Assembly (NCBI GenBank): GCA_037142435.1
Contig: JBAXAO010000002.1
Coordinates: 730-64,729, forward strand
Source of the DNA: Actinomycetes bacterium
GTDB lineage: Bacteria; Actinomycetota; Actinomycetes; Nanopelagicales; Nanopelagicaceae
Reading direction: 5' to 3'
DNA length: 64,000 nt
Below the pieces are notes generated by a model. The model ran no database searches. It saw only the letters and a list, made by a program, of their open reading frames with translations, and had not been told where the DNA came from. Shown here one piece after another: positions 1-36,185 of the stretch; positions within the stretch are counted from its first letter, which is position 1, and the number at the start of each line of letters is the position of its first letter. A program made the position numbers and the translations under genes.

Positions 1-513
1 GCAGTATGTGGTTTTATTAAATTTATTGTTCAACTGGCGCAGGCTAAATCTGTTGTAGAGATTGGCACAGGTTCTGGTGTGAGCGGGTTGTGGATTTTTC
101 AAGGTCTTGCCAAAGATGGATTGCTCACCTCTATTGATACTGAGCGTGAAAATAGTGCAAGTGCCCGAAAAGTTTTTGAAGAGTCGGGTCTTTCGGCCCA
201 GCGGTATCGACTAATTACAGGAAACATTATTGATGTTGTAGGAAAGCTGGCAGATCAAAATTACGACGTCATGATTGTTAGACCCGCTCAGGATCTCTTC
301 GACGTCATTCAAGAGGGATACCGCCTTCTCAATTCTCACGGAGTCCTCGTTATTGACTATGCCTTAGGTGGCGGCAAAGTCGCAGACCCAACGCAGCGCG
401 ACTTCGACACCATTTCCAGGAGAGATGCGATTCGAGCAATAAAGGAGGATTCCCGGTGGAATTCGACCTTGCTCCCGCTTGGCGCCGGCGTATTGCTCGC
501 CACCAAGAACTAA
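1..513 (+). CDS. class I SAM-dependent O-methyltransferase, 5' end outside window
   Basis: The frame of tracked ORF 79..513 stays open back to nt 1. Nt 1-78 translate to ...KSVVEIGTGSGVSGLW, the SAM-binding motif I. Its position beside htrA-tatB-mrp resembles Rv1220c (recalled synteny). Confidence 0.75.
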   Translation, partial: AVCGFIKFIVQLAQAKSVVEIGTGSGVSGLWIFQGLAKDGLLTSIDTERENSASARKVFEESGLSAQRYRLITGNIIDVVGKLADQNYDVMIVRPAQDLFDVIQEGYRLLNSHGVLVIDYALGGGKVADPTQRDFDTISRRDAIRAIKEDSRWNSTLLPLGAGVLLATKN

Positions 514-579
514 CCTCCGCCTGGCACTAAGTTTTATTTTGGCTAGTTCTCAACTTTTATTAGGCTTTACTCAGTAAGA

Positions 580-1842
580 ATGGTCTTGGTCAGGGATGTA
601 TGTTTCAAGCTTAATTATTGGGGGACTGAATTGAGCACAGATGAATCAATGGCACCTATAGAGAATTCGGCTTTGCCACCGTCAGATACGCCGTGGTGGA
701 CAACTCCAACTTCTCGCGAAAGTGCGCCGTTTAACTCCTACGAGCCAGCGCACGTTTCAGTGCCCTACGTGGCGCAGCCACCGCGGCGATCAATTGGTCT
801 AGGTCTCGTGGTTCTTATTGCGATTCTTGCCGGAGCGGTTGGTTCAGTTGCTGGACGAGCATTTAATTTTGCAACTGGGTCTACTCACCTCGTTAGCACA
901 CATTCCAATATCGAACGCGCAGCAAATTCCATCGCCGGAATTGCCGCTCGAGTTTCTCCCTCAGTGGTTTCAGTTTCAGTCGAATCTGGTGCGGGTGGTG
1001 ATACCGGATCGGGATTCTTCATCGACTCTAATGGATATATCGTGACCAACAATCACGTGGTCGAAGCGGCTGCCGCGGGGGGCGGAACCATCACTGTTAA
1101 TTTACAGAGTGGCAAAAGTTTTCCCGCAAAAATTGTGGGACGAGATGCTGCATACGATTTAGCTGTGCTTAAAATTGAAGTCGCCGATGCACCGGCACTT
1201 ACTTTAGGAAATAGTGATGATGTAAAGGTCGGAGACGCCGTTATTGCGATTGGATCTCCGCTTGGCCTGGCTGGAACTGTTACCTCTGGCATCATCAGCG
1301 CGAAAGATCGTGCAGTAACTGCTGGCAGCGGTACTGGCGAAAGTTCCTTCATTAATGCTTTGCAAACAGATGCTGCTATTAACCCAGGAAATTCTGGTGG
1401 ACCGTTGGTGGACTCCGCCGGTGCTGTGATTGGCGTTAACTCTGCTATCGCATCGTTAGGTTCAAGTTTTAGCGGTCAATCTGGGTCTATCGGCCTGGGG
1501 TTTGCTATACCTATTAATCAAGCTAAGAAAACCGCCGAACAGTTGATTAAGACTGGCTCCTCAACTCATCCCATCATTGGACTATCGCTCGATAACAGTT
1601 TCACTGGAATCGGAGCAAAGATCGCCACAACTGCCGATGCCATCCTTCCGGGCGGGCCGGCTGACAAGGCGGGCTTGCGTGCTGGCGATGTCATTACTGC
1701 TATCGACGGTCGATCCGTGGCTAGCGCTGACGAGCTTATTGTGGCCGTCCGAACCCACAATGTTGGAGACGGCGTGACGCTGACATACAAACGAGCGGGT
1801 ATTACCAAAGAAGTAACCCTTAAATTGATTGCGAAGAAGTAG
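580..1842 (+). CDS. htrA: HtrA/DegP-family serine protease with PDZ domain, N-terminal membrane anchor
   Basis: Catalytic contexts TNNHVV, DLAVLK and GNSGGPL are present. There is a hydrophobic anchor (IGLGLVVLIAILAGAV) and a C-terminal PDZ (GLRAGDVITAIDG). The true start is probably TTG 631 or ATG 649. Confidence 0.9.
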   Translation: MVLVRDVCFKLNYWGTELSTDESMAPIENSALPPSDTPWWTTPTSRESAPFNSYEPAHVSVPYVAQPPRRSIGLGLVVLIAILAGAVGSVAGRAFNFATGSTHLVSTHSNIERAANSIAGIAARVSPSVVSVSVESGAGGDTGSGFFIDSNGYIVTNNHVVEAAAAGGGTITVNLQSGKSFPAKIVGRDAAYDLAVLKIEVADAPALTLGNSDDVKVGDAVIAIGSPLGLAGTVTSGIISAKDRAVTAGSGTGESSFINALQTDAAINPGNSGGPLVDSAGAVIGVNSAIASLGSSFSGQSGSIGLGFAIPINQAKKTAEQLIKTGSSTHPIIGLSLDNSFTGIGAKIATTADAILPGGPADKAGLRAGDVITAIDGRSVASADELIVAVRTHNVGDGVTLTYKRAGITKEVTLKLIAKK

Positions 1843-1868
1843 TTTTTACTTCCGACTACTCTTAGCCC

Positions 1869-2180
1869 ATGTTCAATATCGGAGCCGGTGAGTTCATCAT
1901 GCTGGCAGTGCTGGCCATGATCTTGGTGGGTCCGGATCGCTTGCCTCAGGTCGCTTCAGAAGCCGCCAAGATGGTGCGCAAGTTACGTTCCATGTCTCAA
2001 GCGGCTACCGCCGAACTTCGTGAGAATCTTGGACCTGGTTATGAGGATCTCCAAGTCACGGACTTGCATCCGAAGAAATTCATCAAGAAGCACATCGGTG
2101 ATGTTCTCGATGGCGCTAATCCCATGGCTGAAATCGAAGAGATTAAAAAGTCAGCAAAAATTGATCCTGACCTCTTATGA
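1869..2180 (+). CDS. tatB: twin-arginine translocase subunit TatB/TatA family
   Basis: The N-terminus MFNIGAGEFIMLAVLAMILVGPDRLP is a Tat TM helix plus hinge, followed by an amphipathic helix. It is 103 aa and follows htrA as in Rv1223-Rv1224. Confidence 0.85.
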   Translation: MFNIGAGEFIMLAVLAMILVGPDRLPQVASEAAKMVRKLRSMSQAATAELRENLGPGYEDLQVTDLHPKKFIKKHIGDVLDGANPMAEIEEIKKSAKIDPDLL

Positions 2181-3307
2181 GCAATGAATCGATCATCGCC
2201 GCGGCGCACGCTGCGTTAGCCACGGTTTCAGATCCCGAACTACATCGACCTTTGCCTGACTTGGGCATGGTTGAATCGGTGGGATTTTCAGCTGGTGTAA
2301 TTTCAGTCAAAATTCTTCTCACCATTTCCGGCTGTCCTATGCGCGAGCGCTTGCAGAGTGATGTGGTTACAGCGCTTTCCAGCGTTGATGGTGTCACTTC
2401 CATCGAGCTCGAATTTGGCACAATGAATGAAGAGCAGAGAAATAACGTCAAGAAATTATTGCGCGGCGGGCGCGAAAAATTTATTCCTTTTGCTCAGCCA
2501 GATTCGCTGACTCGAGTTTTAGGAATTGCATCTGGAAAAGGTGGCGTAGGTAAGTCTTCAGTTACCGTCAATCTCGCTGTGACTGCTGCTGCAAAAGGAT
2601 TGAAAGTCGGCATCTTGGATGCCGATGTCTACGGTCACTCGATTCCACGGTTGATGGGTATTCTCGACCGCAGGCCAACTGCCATCGATCAAACGTTTAT
2701 TCCCGTTGAAAATTTTGGCGTCAAAGTTGTCTCCATGGAAATGTTCAAACCCGAACGCGCAGATCCCATTGTTTATCGTGGTCCATTGCTCCATCGAGTG
2801 CTAGAACAGCTACTCAGTGATGCCTACTGGGGAGATCTGGATTTATTGCTCCTTGATTTGCCGCCAGGGACCGGCGATATCGCCATCTCATTAGGGCAAC
2901 TTATTCCGGGCTCTGAAATCCTGGTCGTCACCACCCCCCAAGTTGCAGCCGCTGAAGTAGCTGAACGAGCTGGACGAGTGGCGCATCAGTTAAAGCAACA
3001 TATTCTCGGAGTAGTCGAAAATATGTCGGATTCTGCCTGTCCCTCTTGCGGCGAGCCGATCTCGATTTTTGGAAGTGGCGGCGGCGAAGCAACTTCCGAG
3101 CGACTTTCAGCACTTGTAGGCGCAGATGTACCGCTCCTAGCCAAGATCCCTTTTGATGTGGCTTTGCGCGAAGGTGGCGATCAAGGGTTGCCTATATCTT
3201 TGGCCGCCCCAGATTCACTAGCGGCGCTGGGCTTTGCACAGCTATTGGAAAAATTGATGATCCGACCAAAATCAATTGTTGGCATTCCGTTAACCCTGCA
3301 CACCTAG
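2177..3307 (+). CDS. mrp: Mrp/ApbC Fe-S cluster carrier ATPase (DUF59 + ParA-like P-loop)
   Basis: It has an N-terminal MIP18/DUF59-like segment, Walker A GKGGVGKSS and a CPSCGEP cysteine motif. Its start overlaps the tatB stop. Confidence 0.9.
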   Translation: MSNESIIAAAHAALATVSDPELHRPLPDLGMVESVGFSAGVISVKILLTISGCPMRERLQSDVVTALSSVDGVTSIELEFGTMNEEQRNNVKKLLRGGREKFIPFAQPDSLTRVLGIASGKGGVGKSSVTVNLAVTAAAKGLKVGILDADVYGHSIPRLMGILDRRPTAIDQTFIPVENFGVKVVSMEMFKPERADPIVYRGPLLHRVLEQLLSDAYWGDLDLLLLDLPPGTGDIAISLGQLIPGSEILVVTTPQVAAAEVAERAGRVAHQLKQHILGVVENMSDSACPSCGEPISIFGSGGGEATSERLSALVGADVPLLAKIPFDVALREGGDQGLPISLAAPDSLAALGFAQLLEKLMIRPKSIVGIPLTLHT

Positions 3308-3316
3308 ACTTAGCGC

Positions 3317-4663
3317 ATGACACGCGCCCAGATCCCAGCAAGCGGGATCAACACGGTTGCGCGCAAGATAGTTGGGCGTCGAGATTCGGTTCTCGCGAGA
3401 AAAAATATTCGAGAATCTTTGGTCTCTGTTGCCGGGCTCATCGGACGTCCAGTCAAGGACCTCGATGGCCGAGATATCGGCAAGTTAGTAGATGTTGTAG
3501 TGCGACATGGCGAAGAAACGTATCCACCCGTCTCCGGGCTCATCGTCAAAGTTGGAAATAGGAAATCTTTTATCAATGGGGCCCGTATTTCCTCATTGAA
3601 TAAGGATGAGATTCGTCTTTCGAGCACCAAAATAAACCTAGAAGACTTCAAACGCCGCGAAGGTGAGTCACTTCTCGATGCCGACGTAATCGATCACCAA
3701 ATCGTTGATGTCGATGGCTTGCGCGTGGTGCGTTCCTCGGATCTCTATTTAGCTCCATTTGATCGCGAGATTCGAGTTGTGGGAGTGGATATCTCCTTCG
3801 TTTCTTTTCTACGTCGCATTTTTCCCGGATCCATCCGCCGCACGCCAACTCCGGAACATGTCGTTGACTGGGCCACTGTTGCATCACTTGCTGACGGATC
3901 TGGCGTTGTTCGCACCTCCGGTTCGCGCGCGGTCCTCAGTCAGTTGCGCCCAGCAGACCTTGCTGACCTCATTGAAGATTTGGCTGGCCGAGAGCAAGGT
4001 GCTCTGATCGAACTTCTTGATCCAGAACTTGCCGCCGATGCCCTGGAGGAAATGGAAGAAGAAGAGCTTCAAGGTTTAATTCGCGGATTAACCTCCGAAC
4101 GTTCGGCAGACTTATTGGCGCGCATGGAACCGGATGAGAGCGCTGAAGTACTTCGCGATCTCGATGAAGAACACCGAGAGAGCATTCTGGGAGTCATGGA
4201 TTCGGCACTCGCTGGCCAACTTCGAAAGTTAGTCTCTTTTGACGAAACCTTAGCTGGTGGAATCATGACGACTCATATTCTCATCGTGCGCGAAAATGAC
4301 ACAGTTGCCTCTGCCCTTAAACTTTTGGTTAGCAATCGCGAGCGCGATATTTCCGATGGCGTCGTCGTCGTTGATTCTCGCGGCAAATTAGTTGACCATA
4401 TTCAAGTCATCGAACTCGTAGCCGCTAAAAGCACCGCGCTGCTATCGACTCTGATCGGTCCGCCATACCCAACTGCGATTCAACTGGATACACCTTTGGA
4501 TGAAGTAGTCGAAGAATTTTCCAATAACCGTGGCTCATCTGTCATTGTGGTCGATGATAAGAACAAACCGGTCGGGCGAATTCTTGCCGATGACCTGGTA
4601 GATGCGCTTGCTTCACTCTCCGAACGTCGAGGTTTCTCCCCAGGTAGCGGTTCGCTCTCATGA
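3317..4663 (+). CDS. soluble PRC-barrel / MgtE N-domain / CBS-pair protein (no membrane domain)
   Basis: It carries acidic helical MgtE_N-type repeats (DLADLIEDLAGRE...LEEMEEEELQGL...MEPDESAEVLRDLDEEHRE) followed by a CBS pair. No hydrophobic segment is present. It resembles Rv1232c downstream of mrp. Confidence 0.8.
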   Translation: MTRAQIPASGINTVARKIVGRRDSVLARKNIRESLVSVAGLIGRPVKDLDGRDIGKLVDVVVRHGEETYPPVSGLIVKVGNRKSFINGARISSLNKDEIRLSSTKINLEDFKRREGESLLDADVIDHQIVDVDGLRVVRSSDLYLAPFDREIRVVGVDISFVSFLRRIFPGSIRRTPTPEHVVDWATVASLADGSGVVRTSGSRAVLSQLRPADLADLIEDLAGREQGALIELLDPELAADALEEMEEEELQGLIRGLTSERSADLLARMEPDESAEVLRDLDEEHRESILGVMDSALAGQLRKLVSFDETLAGGIMTTHILIVRENDTVASALKLLVSNRERDISDGVVVVDSRGKLVDHIQVIELVAAKSTALLSTLIGPPYPTAIQLDTPLDEVVEEFSNNRGSSVIVVDDKNKPVGRILADDLVDALASLSERRGFSPGSGSLS

Positions 4664-5934
4664 GTGATGTAAAGAAGACCGCTACAAAGCGGCCAGGTTC
4701 GCCTGCCATTTCGCCACGAAAGATTCGCATCGCCGCGCTTTTGTCAGTTATGGGACCTGGCGTGATCGCTGGACTATCTGATGATGATCCTGCTGGCATC
4801 ACGACCTATTCGATTCTCGGTGCCAAATATGGCTATCAGATGCTCTGGGTACTTGTGGTGTCGACCATCGCATTGATTCTTTTTCAAGATTTAGGAGCTC
4901 GAATTGGCGTTGTTACTCGCCAAGGTTTGATTGGTTTGGTCCGCCAAAAATATGGCGCTAGATCGGGCGTCCTCAGCGCAGTGGCATTGATTTTGGCCAA
5001 CATCGGCACGATGACTGCCGAATTTGCCGGTATCGCCGCGGCTGGTCAACTCTTTGGGTATTCCCGCTACGTCACAGTTCCTGTGGCCGCACTCCTCGTG
5101 TCCTTCTTGGTACTGCGCGGATCCTTCTCTCGCGTAGAAAAAGTTTTCTTCTTACTTTCAGCAGTATTTCTCTCCTATGTGATCGCTGGATTCCTATCTC
5201 ATCCAGACTGGGGAAAGGCGTTTCACGGCATGGTAGTGCCGTCGATGCCCTTCACTCATGATGCTGTATTTATCGCGACCGCAACGTTAGGTACGACGCT
5301 GGCGCCTTGGGGATTGGCATTTATTCAGTCTTACGCAGTGGATAAGCGCTTGACTCGCGATGATCTGAAGTTGCTTCGGGTAGATGTTTGGACCGGTTCA
5401 ATGCTCACCGGAGTCATCGGATTTTTCGTGATCATCACCTGCGCAGCTACTCTCAACAAACAACACATTTCTATCCAAGATGCATCTGATGCCGCCGCCG
5501 CTCTCAAGCCGCTTGCCGGAACTTTAGCGAAGGATCTTTTTGCGATTGGTTTAATTGGAGCCGCACTTCTGGCTGCATCTATTCTTCCACTGTCCACGGC
5601 TTACTCTGTATCTGACCTCACGGGACGTCCGGCAGCATTAGACGATGGTCCGCGCGAAGCCCCACTTTTCTATGGAACTTTTGCCGCCATCACAGTTTTA
5701 TCTGCGGTCTTAATTCTTATTCCAGGCGCTCCACTCATTACGATCTTAGTTCTTACTCAAATTCTTAATGCCGTACTGCTATTGCCGTTACTGCTTTATA
5801 TGTTTGGCATATCCAGAGATAAGCGCCTCATGGGCGAATATGCATCAACAAAAACGATGCGAGCAATTTATGGCGTGATTATTGCCATCGTCTTTGTCTG
5901 CGTTGCTTGCATGCTTTGGTTCACCGTTCACTAA
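4660..5934 (+). CDS. NRAMP/SLC11-family divalent cation transporter with atypical metal site
   Basis: About 11 TM segments. TM1 reads MGPGVIAGLSDDDPAG and TM6 reads LGTTLAPWGLAF, aligning to the NRAMP DPGN and MPH motifs but with substitutions. ATGA overlap with the upstream gene. Confidence 0.8.
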   Translation: MSDVKKTATKRPGSPAISPRKIRIAALLSVMGPGVIAGLSDDDPAGITTYSILGAKYGYQMLWVLVVSTIALILFQDLGARIGVVTRQGLIGLVRQKYGARSGVLSAVALILANIGTMTAEFAGIAAAGQLFGYSRYVTVPVAALLVSFLVLRGSFSRVEKVFFLLSAVFLSYVIAGFLSHPDWGKAFHGMVVPSMPFTHDAVFIATATLGTTLAPWGLAFIQSYAVDKRLTRDDLKLLRVDVWTGSMLTGVIGFFVIITCAATLNKQHISIQDASDAAAALKPLAGTLAKDLFAIGLIGAALLAASILPLSTAYSVSDLTGRPAALDDGPREAPLFYGTFAAITVLSAVLILIPGAPLITILVLTQILNAVLLLPLLLYMFGISRDKRLMGEYASTKTMRAIYGVIIAIVFVCVACMLWFTVH

Positions 5935-6825
5935 ATGAGTATCGATAACCACAATGCCCTTCCCGAGGGTCGGGATATTGCTTTTCTAGCTCTCGGGGTG
6001 GTCGGAATCGGTACCTCCGGCCCAGTCATTGCCCTCAGCACTATGCCGATTCCAACGCTTATTTTTTGGCGAAATCTTGGTGGTGCGTTAACGATGCTGC
6101 CATTTGCCATGGTTAAGAAGGAATGGAAGAGCGTTGAACAACGCACCGCTATCAGATGGTCGCTCTTGTCCGGATTCTTGCTCGCGTTGCACTTCCTAGG
6201 ATTTTTTGTTGCCATGCGAATGAGTTCGGTTGCTGCCGGAACGGCTTTAACCGCAATGCAACCTATCTTTGCCGCTATCTTTCTGAAAATTCGTGGGCAC
6301 AGAATTCCTCGCCAAGCATGGCTGGGAATGTTGATTGCTTTTCTCTCCGTTCTTTTAATCACCGGTGTTGATCTACATCTATCGGTCCGTGCTTTTGTCG
6401 GAGATCTGGCTGCGCTGGGATGTGCCGCCCTTGCTGCTGGCTATGTCCTGATTGGGTCCAAAGCCCAAAGAACTTTATCGACCAGCACTTACACTGTTTT
6501 TTGTTACAGCACGTGTGCATTAACGGTCTTGCCGGTCTCGCTATTGGTCGGCTATCCGCTCTTTCACTTCACTGCAAAGCAGTGGTGGTTGGTCTTAGCC
6601 CTTATCGCTGGGGCACAATTGTTAGGTCACACGATGTTCAACCTTTCGCTCAAGCGAGTTTCACCTGCCGTTGTCTCGTTGATTACTTTTTTCGAAGTGC
6701 CAGTGAGCGCCATCTTGGCTGCATGGTGGTTGGGGCAACATCCAGCAGCGGGAATCATTCCCGGGATCGTGGGGCTGCTCGTTGGTTGTGCGATTTTTGT
6801 TCTACGCACAAAAGTAGCCGAATAA
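5935..6825 (+). CDS. EamA/DMT-family transporter
   Basis: About 10 TM helices in two repeats typical of EamA. The ATG lies directly after the upstream TAA. Confidence 0.7.
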   Translation: MSIDNHNALPEGRDIAFLALGVVGIGTSGPVIALSTMPIPTLIFWRNLGGALTMLPFAMVKKEWKSVEQRTAIRWSLLSGFLLALHFLGFFVAMRMSSVAAGTALTAMQPIFAAIFLKIRGHRIPRQAWLGMLIAFLSVLLITGVDLHLSVRAFVGDLAALGCAALAAGYVLIGSKAQRTLSTSTYTVFCYSTCALTVLPVSLLVGYPLFHFTAKQWWLVLALIAGAQLLGHTMFNLSLKRVSPAVVSLITFFEVPVSAILAAWWLGQHPAAGIIPGIVGLLVGCAIFVLRTKVAE

Positions 6826-6848
6826 TTGCTTCACGGTAGATTTACACC

Positions 6849-7694
6849 GTGATTGACCTCCATACCCATTCCGCCACTAGCGATGGCACGGATACCCCGG
6901 GCGAACTCATTAATAAGGCTCTAGCTCGTGGCCTTGATGTTGTTGCGCTGACGGACCATGACACGATTGCCGGTTGGGATGAAGCGCTTCGCTATCTGCG
7001 ACCTAACTTAGATTTGGTACTTGGCTCCGAAATTTCATGTCAGACCGAGGATGGCATAAGCGTTCATATGTTGGGGTTACTTTTCGATCCTGATTATTTG
7101 CCGCTTCAGGAAGTTATGGCTCAAACTCGTGATAATCGTCATGGCCGAATGGAGAAAATCATTCGCAGACTTAATGACAATGGCTATCAGATAGAAATGT
7201 CCGATGTTTTAGCGCAATTGTCGGAAGGCGCAACCCTGGGTCGTCCGCATCTTGCTGATGCATTAATTGCCAAAGGGTTGGTAAAGAATCGTGAAGAAGC
7301 ATTCGCTGAACTTCTCCACAACAATTCGCGTTTTTATGTTTCCCACTACTCGCCGACGCCAGAAGAGGTTATCCGGCTGATTAAAAGTGCTGGGGGAGTC
7401 GCCGTAATTGCTCATCCGTTGGCCTCGCTACGTGGCCGGACTATTGAGCCAGCGGTAATCCAATCCCTCGTTGGGGCAGGTTTAGATGGCATCGAAGTGC
7501 ATCACCGCGATCAGAACCTAGAAGAGCGTGAGCTTCTTTCGCACATTGCGCGTGACTTCGACTTGGTGGTCACTGGCTCCAGCGATTACCACGGGACGGG
7601 TAAACTCAATGTTCTAGCCGAGTCCACAACCGACCCACAGCAGTGGGAAGCGCTGGAATCGCGAGCCCGAGAGCGAAGGGTAATTTCCCTATGA
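6849..7694 (+). CDS. PHP-domain metal-dependent phosphoesterase (TrpH/YciV-like)
   Basis: The N-terminus (M)IDLHTHSATSDGT plus ALTDHDT and AHP motifs match the PHP family. GTG start. Confidence 0.85.
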   Translation: MIDLHTHSATSDGTDTPGELINKALARGLDVVALTDHDTIAGWDEALRYLRPNLDLVLGSEISCQTEDGISVHMLGLLFDPDYLPLQEVMAQTRDNRHGRMEKIIRRLNDNGYQIEMSDVLAQLSEGATLGRPHLADALIAKGLVKNREEAFAELLHNNSRFYVSHYSPTPEEVIRLIKSAGGVAVIAHPLASLRGRTIEPAVIQSLVGAGLDGIEVHHRDQNLEERELLSHIARDFDLVVTGSSDYHGTGKLNVLAESTTDPQQWEALESRARERRVISL

Positions 7695-8311
7695 GAAACA
7701 TGGCCGCACTATCTGCCGTAACTTTTGGCATACAAGCATTCGTCACGCTTCTCGTGATTATGGATCCGCCTGGTGCGACTCCAATTTTTCTCTCGTTGGT
7801 ATCCGGTCGCAATCAGCGTCAGCGAGTACGCATGGCATGGCAAGGGGCGGCTGTCTCTCTCTTTGTGATTGTCGTTTTCGCCCTCTTCGGGAAGTTCATC
7901 CTGAGTTATCTTCATATATCGATAAACGCGTTGCAGGGTGCTGGTGGACTCTTGCTCCTTTTGATTTCTCTTGAGCTCTTGACCGGAAAAGACACATCCG
8001 ATGTTGCACACGAGAATGTCAATGTTGCCCTAGTCCCTCTAGGCACACCTCTTCTTGCTGGACCAGGTGCGATCGTTACAACTATTTTGTATGTTCAATA
8101 TGCCCACACCGGAACGCAGAAATTTTCTTTAGCTCTGGCCATCATTGGGGTTCATATAGTTATAGGTCTCACTTTGATGTTCTCTACAAAAATCTTGGGT
8201 CTGATACGAGAATCCGGCGTGACACTTGTGGCGCGCATTGCAGGTCTCCTTTTGGCTGCGATTGCAGTAGAGATGGTCGTGCAGTCAATAAAGGGATTCT
8301 TCAATTTATGA
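7691..8311 (+). CDS. MarC-family (UPF0056) integral membrane protein
   Basis: Six hydrophobic segments, with MDPPGATPIFLSL typical of MarC. ATG 7691 overlaps the PHP stop (ATGA), so it is preferred over the tracked start at 7643. Confidence 0.75.
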   Translation: MRNMAALSAVTFGIQAFVTLLVIMDPPGATPIFLSLVSGRNQRQRVRMAWQGAAVSLFVIVVFALFGKFILSYLHISINALQGAGGLLLLLISLELLTGKDTSDVAHENVNVALVPLGTPLLAGPGAIVTTILYVQYAHTGTQKFSLALAIIGVHIVIGLTLMFSTKILGLIRESGVTLVARIAGLLLAAIAVEMVVQSIKGFFNL

Positions 8312-9084
8312 GTGAAGACTCCCTTTTTTCCGTTGACAGCGTGACCAGACGAATTCACTCTGACTCATCGATGTTCGCCGGCGGAATTCGCGCTTTATTA
8401 CAGCAAGCGCTTCATCCTGAAGCAATGGCGGGTGTTGCCCAAAATTCTAACTTTCGTGAAGATGCTTGGGGACGATTGCAACGAACTGGTGATTACGTTG
8501 GACTTCTAACATTTGGTCCCAAAAACCAAGCGGAGGCCTTGGCGGCTCGAGTTCGCGGTATACATTCCAAACTCGGGCTTGATGATCCGCATCTGCTTTT
8601 ATGGGTCCATATGTCGATGGTGGACTCTTTCTTGGACTGCGCCGTGAGGTCGGGTTTGGAATTGAGCCAATCCGAGCAAGATCAATATCTGGCCGAGATG
8701 GTCATCTTTGCCGAACTCGTTGGTATCGATGCAAACGAAGTTCCTGCTTCCGTTCCTCAGATGAAAAACTACTTCCAAGCGATTCAGCCGGAATTAGCCG
8801 CCAGCGAAGATGCCAAACGAGCCGCACTCTTTTTAACCTTTCCGCCCATGCCTACGGCGGTGAGGTTGGGCACACTTGCTGCCCCGGCGTGGGCAGGTGT
8901 GGCTGCGATAGCCACTGCCTCTCTTCCGAATTGGGCTCGAAATTTGTATCACTTGCCATCTTTTCCTGGCCATGTGCGGGCAACAGACCTGGCGCTGCGC
9001 CAACTTCGTAGTTCTATTCGCCTTATTCCCGAATCTTGGCTGGGCAATCCCAGTTCAAAGTTTGCTCAAGGAGTTTCGGTATGA
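8308..9084 (+). CDS. DUF2236 / MpaB-family oxygenase-like protein
   Basis: Family assignment is recalled from segments such as RALLQQALHPEAMAGV and LLLWVHMSMVDSF. ATGA overlap with the marC-like gene. Confidence 0.55.
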   Translation: MSEDSLFSVDSVTRRIHSDSSMFAGGIRALLQQALHPEAMAGVAQNSNFREDAWGRLQRTGDYVGLLTFGPKNQAEALAARVRGIHSKLGLDDPHLLLWVHMSMVDSFLDCAVRSGLELSQSEQDQYLAEMVIFAELVGIDANEVPASVPQMKNYFQAIQPELAASEDAKRAALFLTFPPMPTAVRLGTLAAPAWAGVAAIATASLPNWARNLYHLPSFPGHVRATDLALRQLRSSIRLIPESWLGNPSSKFAQGVSV

Positions 9085-36113: not shown

Positions 36114-36185
36114 TGCCCCCGGCAGGAATCGAACCTGCGCCCCCGCCTCCGGAGGGCGGTGCTCTATCCCCTGAGCTACGGGGGC
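36114..36185 (-). tRNA. tRNA-Arg (anticodon CCG), CCA not encoded
   Basis: The reverse complement folds as GCCCCCG-TA-GCTC-AGGGGATA-GAGC-A-CCGCC-CTCCGGA-GGCGG-GGGC-GCAGG-TTCGATT-CCTGC-CGGGGGC-A. The anticodon loop CU-CCG-GA gives CCG. Confidence 0.9.

Follow-up and report, generated by a model that had tools for sequence, protein, structure and literature searches.

An MgtE-domain protein gene coupled to an NRMT-clade permease gene in a freshwater actinobacterium: a probable regulated Mg2+ uptake module

In the 64-kb stretch of DNA analysed here (the window), we observed a soluble MgtE-like partner gene (3317..4663, + strand; 448 aa, with the open reading frame at exactly these coordinates) followed by an NRMT-clade, NRAMP-fold permease gene (4660..5934, + strand; 424 aa). 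We lean, somewhat beyond even chances, towards reading the two as a two-gene NRMT uptake module as in Shin et al. (2014), in which the soluble protein, hereafter the sensor, would inhibit the permease in trans at high Mg2+. The NRMT/MgtE-like pairing was reported, and feedback regulation by the MgtE-like protein proposed, in that study (PLoS Genet 10:e1004429; PMC4072509). Neither the pairing nor the regulatory idea is therefore new, and the locus in the window is an ordinary example in a freshwater actinobacterium.

The sensor is composed of a basic N-terminal helix (residues ~9-34), tandem PRC barrels (~45-110 and ~117-190), an MgtE_N domain (~200-310) and a CBS pair (~315-437). Pfam detected two CBS domains and, with E 1.7e-21, an MgtE_N domain spanning residues 210-310. 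No Pfam match to a PRC barrel was obtained with the 448-aa sensor itself; full-length sensor relatives matched PF05239 (PRC), up to E 3e-11, and residues 1-200, which were confidently modelled by AF2 (pLDDT 87 for the sensor model), resembled tandem-PRC proteins (CdpB1/B2) as well as single PRC barrels. The C-terminal half of the model could be superimposed on the cytosolic domains of MgtE, among them that of the Mg2+-bound form 2yvy, with TM scores of 0.84-0.91. The protein is acidic (pI 4.9, and 4.2 for the MgtE_N part alone) and has no hydrophobic or transmembrane segment (maximum Kyte-Doolittle 19-residue mean 1.51). Thus, Pfam, the AF2 fold and hydropathy bore out the preliminary description of this DNA, which had noted a PRC-barrel-like N-terminus, acidic MgtE_N helices and a CBS pair without a transmembrane segment. 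Because the MgtE pore domain (PF01769) was not matched, the TIGR00400 score lay below its cut-off (77 versus 233 bits, over profile positions 23-253 only) and a hydrophobic segment is lacking, the sensor is classified from its sequence as an MgtE-domain protein and not an MgtE channel.

Five of the six alignable Mg2+ ligands in the cytosolic domain of Thermus thermophilus MgtE were kept acidic in the sensor: E59, D91, D95, D247 and D250 correspond to D241, D273, E277, D426 and D429. Of these, D273 and D426 answer to site Mg4 and E277 to site Mg6. All five positions are acidic and near-invariant across the sensor family, which supports the retention of the clamp ligands of MgtE. The sixth, D226, is replaced by Arg405, and nothing in the sensor corresponds to the plug-helix ligands E258 and D259, through which MgtE relays the signal to its pore; both the missing plug-helix ligands and the D226-to-Arg405 change count against MgtE-like gating.

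The sensor stop and the permease start overlap as ATGA (4660..4663, + strand), which indicates that translation of the two genes is probably coupled. This overlap had been noted previously, and it can be read directly in the sequence; a -4 or -1 start/stop overlap was also found in ~70 of 79 related loci. The related loci were collected by a genome scan with a 10-sequence alignment as the query. In species-representative genomes, an NRMT gene directly followed the sensor gene in 79/79 informative loci, with sensor identities as low as 45%, and the same pair with the same motifs recurred in every one of them; because of this recurrence, the association lies far beyond chance. The preliminary description had named a lack of conserved pairing in related genomes as an observation that would speak against its reading, and the pairing proved to be conserved throughout the informative loci. 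We conclude from these comparisons that sensor-permease pairing and its predicted translational coupling are strongly conserved. The EleNRMT lineage fits the same pattern, with a 450-aa PRC+MgtE_N+CBS gene located 4 nt upstream of the NRMT gene in Paraeggerthella, which carries a 91% relative. Beyond these loci, some distant sensor-family members (31-37% identity) were missing an adjacent Nramp gene, and two orphan sensors (L090 and L091) had no recognisable partner at their locus. The distance matrices of sensors and permeases were correlated (Mantel r 0.92; 0/999 permutations reached that value), as those of any neighbours inherited together would be; the correlation is no proof of contact.

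The permease (Pfam Nramp, E 1e-82) reads DDDPAG in TM1 and GTTLAPWG in TM6. Alignment to DraNramp (DPGN / A-x-x-M-P-H; M230A mutant chain) and to EleNRMT (DAGG / TTIAPW) upheld the Asn->Gly, Met->Ala and His->Trp substitutions noticed earlier, and revealed a further one, Ala->Thr, at the position of EleNRMT Thr224. The Slc11/MntH motifs DPGN and A-x-x-M-P-H are absent, and DPAG and T-T-L-A-P-W stand in their place. At EleNRMT positions 55, 58, 224, 227 and 379, the roles of which in the NRMT binding site have been described (PMC8806188), the permease carries D, G, T, A and Q; Trp229 and the Glu133 equivalent are also kept. The match to EleNRMT (7qia) reached 312 bits (E 4e-92), compared with 95 and 76 bits (E ~1e-20) for the best MntH-type chains and 49 bits for NRAT; identity was 41% to EleNRMT over 400 residues and 26% to DraNramp. 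In a neighbour-joining tree the permease grouped with EleNRMT. The MntH NCBIfam model scored 128 bits against a cut-off of 430, and MntH identity was rejected by this score, by the structure-chain matches and by the binding-site motifs. Match scores, tree and site residues therefore agree with the earlier suggestion of an NRMT-type permease, and in the placement among MntH, NRMT and NRAT the protein falls with NRMT and does not cluster with MntH; we assign it to the NRMT clade on these comparisons. The alpha-6b histidine positions of the H+ pathway are occupied by Trp and Ile, and this loss is consistent with uncoupled transport, as in EleNRMT (PMC8806188).

Because EleNRMT transports both Mg2+ and Mn2+ (PMC8806188), Mg2+ is a physiological substrate that we infer, and the pair might instead serve primarily for the uptake of Mn2+, or of divalent metals in general, with the MgtE-like protein sensing Mn2+ or the Mg2+/Mn2+ balance. 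The Mn2+ transport of EleNRMT points this way, as does the paired permease of A. capsulatum, which rescued a Mn2+-transport mutant and rescued a Mg2+ mutant only at millimolar Mg2+ (PMC4072509). The regulatory sequences lend this alternative some further weight. An M-box lies upstream of nrmT in a subset of genomes, where it was taken by the authors as a marker of Mg2+ specificity (PMC4072509). No Rfam match to a riboswitch was found within positions 1-7000 of the window at E<=5, no M-box reached the gathering score across the whole 64-kb window (nothing but tRNA), and none was detected in five related loci (nothing but tRNAs). An M-box or other riboswitch upstream of the pair was rejected by these scans, so that this marker of Mg2+ specificity is absent here, which counts against a Mg2+ role. 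At the A. capsulatum NrmT-group locus, too, an MgtE-like gene lies next to the permease gene and a riboswitch is lacking (PMC4072509), and the M-box is not a defining feature of the NrmT/MgtE-like pair. Against a primary Mn2+ role, the equivalent of Thr224, which in EleNRMT is required for Mg2+ transport with only a mild effect on Mn2+ (PMC8806188), is invariant in all 70+ paired permeases. Moreover, the soft-ligand Met is absent from the permease, the sensor keeps the hard-oxygen Mg2+ ligands of MgtE, and, as argued for EleNRMT, an uncoupled carrier of low Mn2+ affinity would be ill suited to scavenging trace Mn2+ (PMC8806188). On this balance, we consider a primarily Mn2+-directed system unlikely.

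The soluble protein could also act without any gating, as a cytosolic metal chaperone or buffer for the incoming ion, or as a factor for permease assembly or stability. Chaperone activity was raised as an alternative role of the MgtE-like protein by Shin et al. (PMC4072509). It would suit the highly acidic character of the protein, above all of its MgtE_N part, and translational coupling suggests stoichiometric co-production. PRC barrels, to which the N-terminal fold matches point, are typically protein-protein adaptor domains. However, EleNRMT in vitro and C. acetobutylicum NrmT in a heterologous host (PMC4072509) function without a partner, and the partner is thus not required for folding or activity. 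In addition, Mg2+ is abundant and weakly bound, which leaves little rationale for a chaperone, and the ligands that are conserved belong to the regulatory clamp of MgtE. We therefore judge a chaperone or assembly role to be distinctly improbable.

The neighbourhood of the pair was also considered. An mrp/apbC-type Fe-S cluster carrier ATPase gene (2177..3307, + strand; Pfam ParA/NUBPL and FeS_assembly_P) lies upstream, with 9 nt between its end and the sensor gene, and a gene for an EamA (DMT-superfamily) membrane protein (5935..6825, + strand) follows, its ATG abutting the permease stop (TAAATG); the EamA gene is probably co-transcribed with the pair. The mrp-type gene was syntenic in only part of the related loci, as was the EamA gene in part of them, and scans for promoters and terminators yielded nothing beyond what shuffled sequence would give. 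The adjacency of sensor and permease might reflect only shared regulation or operon hitch-hiking, with the true target of the sensor elsewhere, for example a separate MgtE-type pore or a DUF1003 protein. The distant relatives without an adjacent Nramp gene would fit, as would the occurrence of the module fused to MgtE pores. For other actinobacteria, the preliminary description had put forward a pairing of an MgtE_N/CBS protein with a DUF1003 membrane protein (Rv1232c/Rv1231c). We give the hitch-hiking explanation very little credence, since the pair occupies at least two different neighbourhoods within Nanopelagicales and remains together even where gene orientation has changed (L082 and L088, with divergent or convergent arrangements), and since in tandem duplications each copy keeps its own partner. 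A tblastn search found no second sensor, NRMT paralogue or MgtE pore domain elsewhere in the 64-kb window, no DUF1003 gene stood beside a sensor-family member in ~90 loci (none of them mycobacterial), and a literature search found no account of the DUF1003/Rv1232c pairing.

MgtE gating is modulated by ATP, and F227 is essential for ATP binding (PMC5529423); in the sensor, F227 is replaced by Gly406, R187 by Ile, Y170 by Gly and N203 by Gly, and these positions are variable across the family. MgtE-like ATP sensing by the sensor was rejected for this reason, and although CBS pairs commonly bind adenosine ligands and nucleotides do act on MgtE, the same losses leave only a very slight chance that the CBS pair senses adenine nucleotides and couples cation uptake to energy state instead of to free Mg2+.

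We return to the reading of the pair as a Mg2+-regulated NRMT module. The permease would be an NRAMP-related divalent-cation uniporter, probably H+-uncoupled, with an enlarged binding site that accepts largely hydrated Mg2+ and also Mn2+, and the co-translated soluble protein would be an MgtE-type cytosolic Mg2+ sensor. At high cytosolic Mg2+, the ion would link the CBS pair to the acidic MgtE_N domain, in the manner of MgtE sites Mg4, Mg6 and Mg7, and the sensor, once closed, would inhibit the permease in trans, possibly docking through its tandem PRC barrels. Such control would make sense for an electrogenic, uncoupled Mg2+ uniporter, which would need some means of being shut off. We infer both the physical interaction between sensor and permease and the direction of regulation, and trans gating by the MgtE-like protein would be a plausible mechanism. 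The preliminary description had likewise proposed a two-polypeptide Mg2+ uptake system with an MgtE-like gate on an NRMT permease; the NRMT type, pairing, coupling and Mg2+ ligands agree with it, but the gating itself has a published result against it, as co-expression of the A. capsulatum MgtE-like partner with its permease left complementation unchanged in the single such test (PMC4072509).

The role of the MgtE-like NRMT partner has been a question since 2014, and the structural and functional work on EleNRMT was all performed without a partner. Three observations bear on this question: the near-universal, translationally coupled pairing; the build of the partner from tandem PRC barrels, MgtE_N and a CBS pair, its Mg2+-clamp ligands intact and its ATP site degenerate; and the presence of a partner gene in EleNRMT's own lineage. 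Both the tandem PRC barrels as a possible docking element and the lost ATP site are, as far as found in the literature, new details. What the analysis adds for the window itself is an annotation, that of a probable Mg2+ uptake system under regulation in acI actinobacteria; no new kind of system emerges. The acI/Nanopelagicales are genome-streamlined and among the most abundant freshwater bacteria. We suggest tentatively, at slightly less than even chances, that the PRC-PRC-MgtE_N-CBS protein is a detachable channel-type Mg2+ gate acting in trans on a LeuT-fold carrier, and that the pair is possibly the main regulated Mg2+ entry in this group. If true, a single sensor module could serve interchangeably, in cis on an MgtE pore and in trans on an NRMT carrier.

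Compared with the operons of Shin et al. (C. acetobutylicum CA_C0685 and A. capsulatum Acp2976/Acp2977), the locus in the window likewise encodes an NRAMP-related permease without the Slc11 Asn, Met and His, immediately downstream of a soluble MgtE N-domain/CBS gene. It differs in having no M-box, which a subset of theirs carries, and in being set in an mrp-...-eamA string of a streamlined freshwater actinobacterium; in addition, their partner is a 'small' protein, encoded by two genes in C. acetobutylicum, whereas that of the window, a protein with tandem PRC barrels, is made as a single polypeptide of 448 aa. EleNRMT from Eggerthella lenta (PDB 7QIA/7QIC/7QJI/7QJJ; Ramanadane et al. 2022, eLife 11:e74589), which was characterised without a partner protein, shares the binding-site signature Asp55, Gly58, Thr224, Ala227, Trp229, Gln379 and Glu133; TM1 reads D-P-A-G in the window and D-A-G-G in EleNRMT, and EleNRMT Asn234 is Ile in the window. 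With the cytosolic domain of T. thermophilus MgtE (PDB 2YVX/2YVY), the sensor shares the N-domain and CBS-pair fold (TM 0.84, rmsd ~2.3 A) and, among the Mg2+ sites, the acidic ligands of Mg4, Mg6 and Mg7 as well as half of those of Mg5. However, it is a separate polypeptide that lacks the plug helix and TM pore, and with them sites Mg1-Mg3; Arg replaces D226, the residues of the ATP site are not kept, and there are, in addition, a basic N-terminal helix and tandem PRC barrels. The same three-part module (residues 38-433, ~31-33% identity) is found in ~600-aa PRC-MgtE_N-CBS-MgtE channels (e.g. P0304 and P0316). Because these relatives fuse PRC-MgtE_N-CBS to an MgtE pore (PF01769), the module has a precedent there as a channel gate in cis, whereas in the window it stands alone beside an unrelated LeuT-fold carrier.

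In the window, the gene for the soluble MgtE-like sensor (3317-4663, + strand; 448 aa) and that for the NRAMP-fold permease (4660-5934, + strand; 424 aa, ~11 hydrophobic segments) were recovered by the ORF listing exactly where the preliminary description had placed them, as was its ATGA at 4660-4663, common to the sensor TGA and the permease ATG. The sensor matched Pfam MgtE_N (residues 210-310; E 1.7e-21) and two CBS domains, and the permease matched the Nramp family PF01566 (E 1e-82). The mrp gene lies upstream of the sensor gene with a gap of only 9 nt, and the ATG of an EamA-family (DMT superfamily) gene (5935-6825) abuts the permease TAA (TAAATG at 5932-5937); this gene is probably cotranscribed with the permease. 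The EamA gene was syntenic in ~40 loci, and a functional tie to metal transport was not evident. The PHP-domain (6849-7694) and MarC-family (7643-8311) genes overlap by ~52 nt as listed (7643-7694), similar overlaps were seen again in related loci (e.g., L001 and L013), and an upstream GTG may have been wrongly taken as the MarC start. A tRNA gene (36114-36185, minus strand) was the sole Rfam match at gathering score in the 64-kb window.

The permease belongs to the NRAMP-related Mg2+ transporters (NRMT), as had been proposed. Among all PDB sequences, its best match by far was EleNRMT, the characterised NRMT of Eggerthella lenta (7qia; E 4e-92, 312 bits), compared with 95 and 76 bits for MntH-type chains, 49 bits for NRAT (plant Al3+ transporter), and ~40 bits for human NRAMPs. 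The curated NCBIfam MntH model reached 128 bits (cut-off 430), identity was 41% to EleNRMT (400 aligned residues) and 26% to DraNramp, and in a neighbour-joining tree rooted on DraNramp and built without NRAT and full MntH groups, the permease grouped with EleNRMT. In EleNRMT, the universally conserved Asp55 is present, Gly58 stands in place of Asn, Thr224, which Mg2+ transport requires, in place of Ala, and Trp and Asn in place of the two alpha-6b histidines; the Met position is Ala, and Gln379 and Glu133 are kept (PMC8806188). The corresponding permease residues are D, G, T, A, W, I, Q, and E. The three substitutions noted earlier (Asn to Gly, Met to Ala, and His to Trp) were all present in this comparison. 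The second alpha-6b position is Asn in EleNRMT and Ile in the window permease. The comparison also brought out an Ala to Thr change, functionally the most telling of these substitutions.

The sensor lacks hydrophobic segments (Kyte-Doolittle mean over 19 residues at most 1.51), its pI is 4.9 (4.2 for the MgtE_N part), and the NCBIfam MgtE equivalog covered only its cytosolic part (77 bits; cut-off 233). An AF2 model from the 36-sequence diverse alignment was confident (pLDDT 87, pTM 0.75), and its C-terminal ~240 residues superimposed on the MgtE cytosolic domains 8gpv, 2yvy, 2oux, and 8gps (TM 0.83-0.91, normalised to target; rmsd ~2.2 A). No Pfam match to a PRC barrel was obtained in the window sensor itself; full-length-aligning relatives matched PF05239 (PRC; E down to 3e-11), and residues 1-200, when modelled on their own (pLDDT 83), matched the tandem-PRC CdpB1/CdpB2 over ~135 columns, as well as single PRC barrels (reaction-centre H subunit, MTH1859, CdvA, and RimM). 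On the basis of these matches, the N-terminus consists of two PRC barrels after a basic helix, so that the soluble architecture of the preliminary description, with a PRC-barrel-like N-terminus, MgtE_N, and a CBS pair, held throughout. The basic helix (residues ~9-34; window 3341-3418) was modelled with only moderate confidence (pLDDT 57-75); residues 1-34 contain 8 K/R and 2 D/E (pI 12). Actinobacterial relatives have this helix, many distant family members begin at the first PRC barrel, and it could serve to bind the membrane or a partner.

Residues of Thermus thermophilus MgtE were mapped to the sensor through a HMMER alignment and a family-wide MAFFT alignment, with the numbering verified at five Ile positions and at the ligands that PMC5882242 names. 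Acidic residues were kept at E59 (site Mg7; sensor D241), D91 (Mg4; D273), D95 (Mg6; E277), D247 (Mg4; D426), and D250 (Mg5; D429), and these five positions were acidic in nearly all relatives (36 diverse and 76 locus-derived); D226 (Mg5) was lost to R405. The sensor lacks counterparts of the plug-helix ligands E258 and D259, as expected without a pore. The sensor thus combines tandem PRC barrels with an MgtE-type fold in which the clamp ligands are intact.

With a threshold of E < 1e-30, an exhaustive representative search yielded 333 cluster representatives, most of them 400-450 aa long and aligning over sensor residues ~38 to 433. In several ~600-aa relatives, this module is joined to an MgtE pore domain, on which it acts in cis. 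Five relatives (P0289, P0304, P0316, P0330, and P0334) are full-length MgtE channels of 585-656 aa with an N-terminal PRC barrel before MgtE_N-CBS-pore; the NRMT partners that stand alone resemble such channels with the pore domain removed, and no discussion of PRC-containing MgtE channels was found in the literature examined.

When one genome per species was scanned, 80 loci were obtained, ~60 from Nanopelagicales (sensor identity 68-88%) and ~20 more distant (~46%), mostly from Acidimicrobiia. Wherever the sequence extended far enough beyond the sensor gene, an Nramp-family gene came directly after it (L070, which stops 142 nt past the sensor gene, was uninformative), with ~54 4-nt and 16 1-nt overlaps under heuristic start assignment. 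All paired permeases had NRMT-type sites, of either the DPAG/TTLAPW subtype found in the window or a DAGG or DSGG/TTITPY subtype. The sensor and permease distance matrices were strongly correlated (Mantel r 0.92; 0/999 permutations as high), which shows co-inheritance and does not necessarily imply physical contact. These results indicated that the pairing is obligatory and translationally coupled, and that it is conserved in related genomes. In Nanopelagicales, the pair was observed either in an HtrA-TatB-Mrp ... EamA-PHP-MarC string, as in the window (580-8311), or in an unrelated neighbourhood, as in L008, L024, L027, and L045, whose full 6-kb flanks held no gene of that string; thus, the genes of the pair relocate together. 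The whole string, of Nanopelagicales type and 59-77% identical to the window, was also seen in L017 (CAMCPZ010000008.1), titled 'MAG: Bifidobacterium breve', a label that is probably wrong.

At L062, L065, and L073, where the best permease match lay 4-5 kb off, two tandem pairs ~4 kb apart were found (5938-8592 and 11229-13264 in L065), one per NRMT subtype; the first sensor has its own permease directly after it, and the protein encoded ahead of the second permease is a 294-aa PRC+MgtE_N protein that lacks CBS domains. These pairs are separated by an MFS transporter, and a heavy-metal P-type ATPase is found upstream. At 31-36% sensor identity, the partner was usually still an Nramp gene, downstream (L081), divergent (L082; 2130-3773, minus strand, with an unusually long permease of 547 aa), or convergent (L088; 4829-6193, minus strand, likewise adjacent in L089). 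No Nramp gene occurred within 3.5 kb of the sensor relative in L090 and L091; in L090, a DUF2254 membrane protein is encoded 1 kb further downstream.

Taken together, we proposed, with somewhat better than even confidence, that Mg2+ would close the N-domain onto the CBS pair and that this signal would pass in trans to the permease, perhaps via the PRC barrels, shutting off an otherwise uncoupled, potential-driven Mg2+ uniporter. The earlier interpretation is therefore partly supported, in its clade placement and conserved pairing, and Mg2+ specificity, trans-gating, and the DUF1003 pairing described for other actinobacteria are putative. A system centred on Mn2+ is an appreciable but clearly lesser possibility: EleNRMT carries Mg2+ and Mn2+, not Ca2+, and without H+ coupling (PMC8806188; Ramanadane et al. 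2022), and the Acidobacterium capsulatum permease, which has no riboswitch, behaved as a Mn2+ transporter (PMC4072509). A chaperone or assembly role of the sensor appears improbable, and action of the sensor on a target elsewhere is quite unlikely. Nucleotide sensing is the least credible, since the MgtE ATP-site residues Y170, R187, N203, and F227 (PMC5529423) correspond to G, I, G, and G in the sensor, at positions variable in the family, which makes MgtE-type ATP modulation unlikely.

The proposed gating of an NRMT-type permease by an MgtE-like protein in trans is itself an independent rediscovery, because the hypothesis was already published by Shin et al. (2014), who named NrmT (PMC4072509), and our literature search found no later paper on the partner. 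In their experiments, co-expression of the A. capsulatum partner left complementation unchanged. Neither an M-box nor another Rfam element precedes the pair in the window or in five related loci. The locus is an ordinary further example of an already known kind of system. In the EleNRMT lineage, the gene for a Paraeggerthella permease (P0396) 91% identical to the crystallised construct lies 4 nt downstream of a 450-aa PRC+MgtE_N+CBS gene homologous to the window sensor (28% identity, E 7e-39). The main value of the analysis is that EleNRMT, together with its own partner, offers a direct test of what the partner does.
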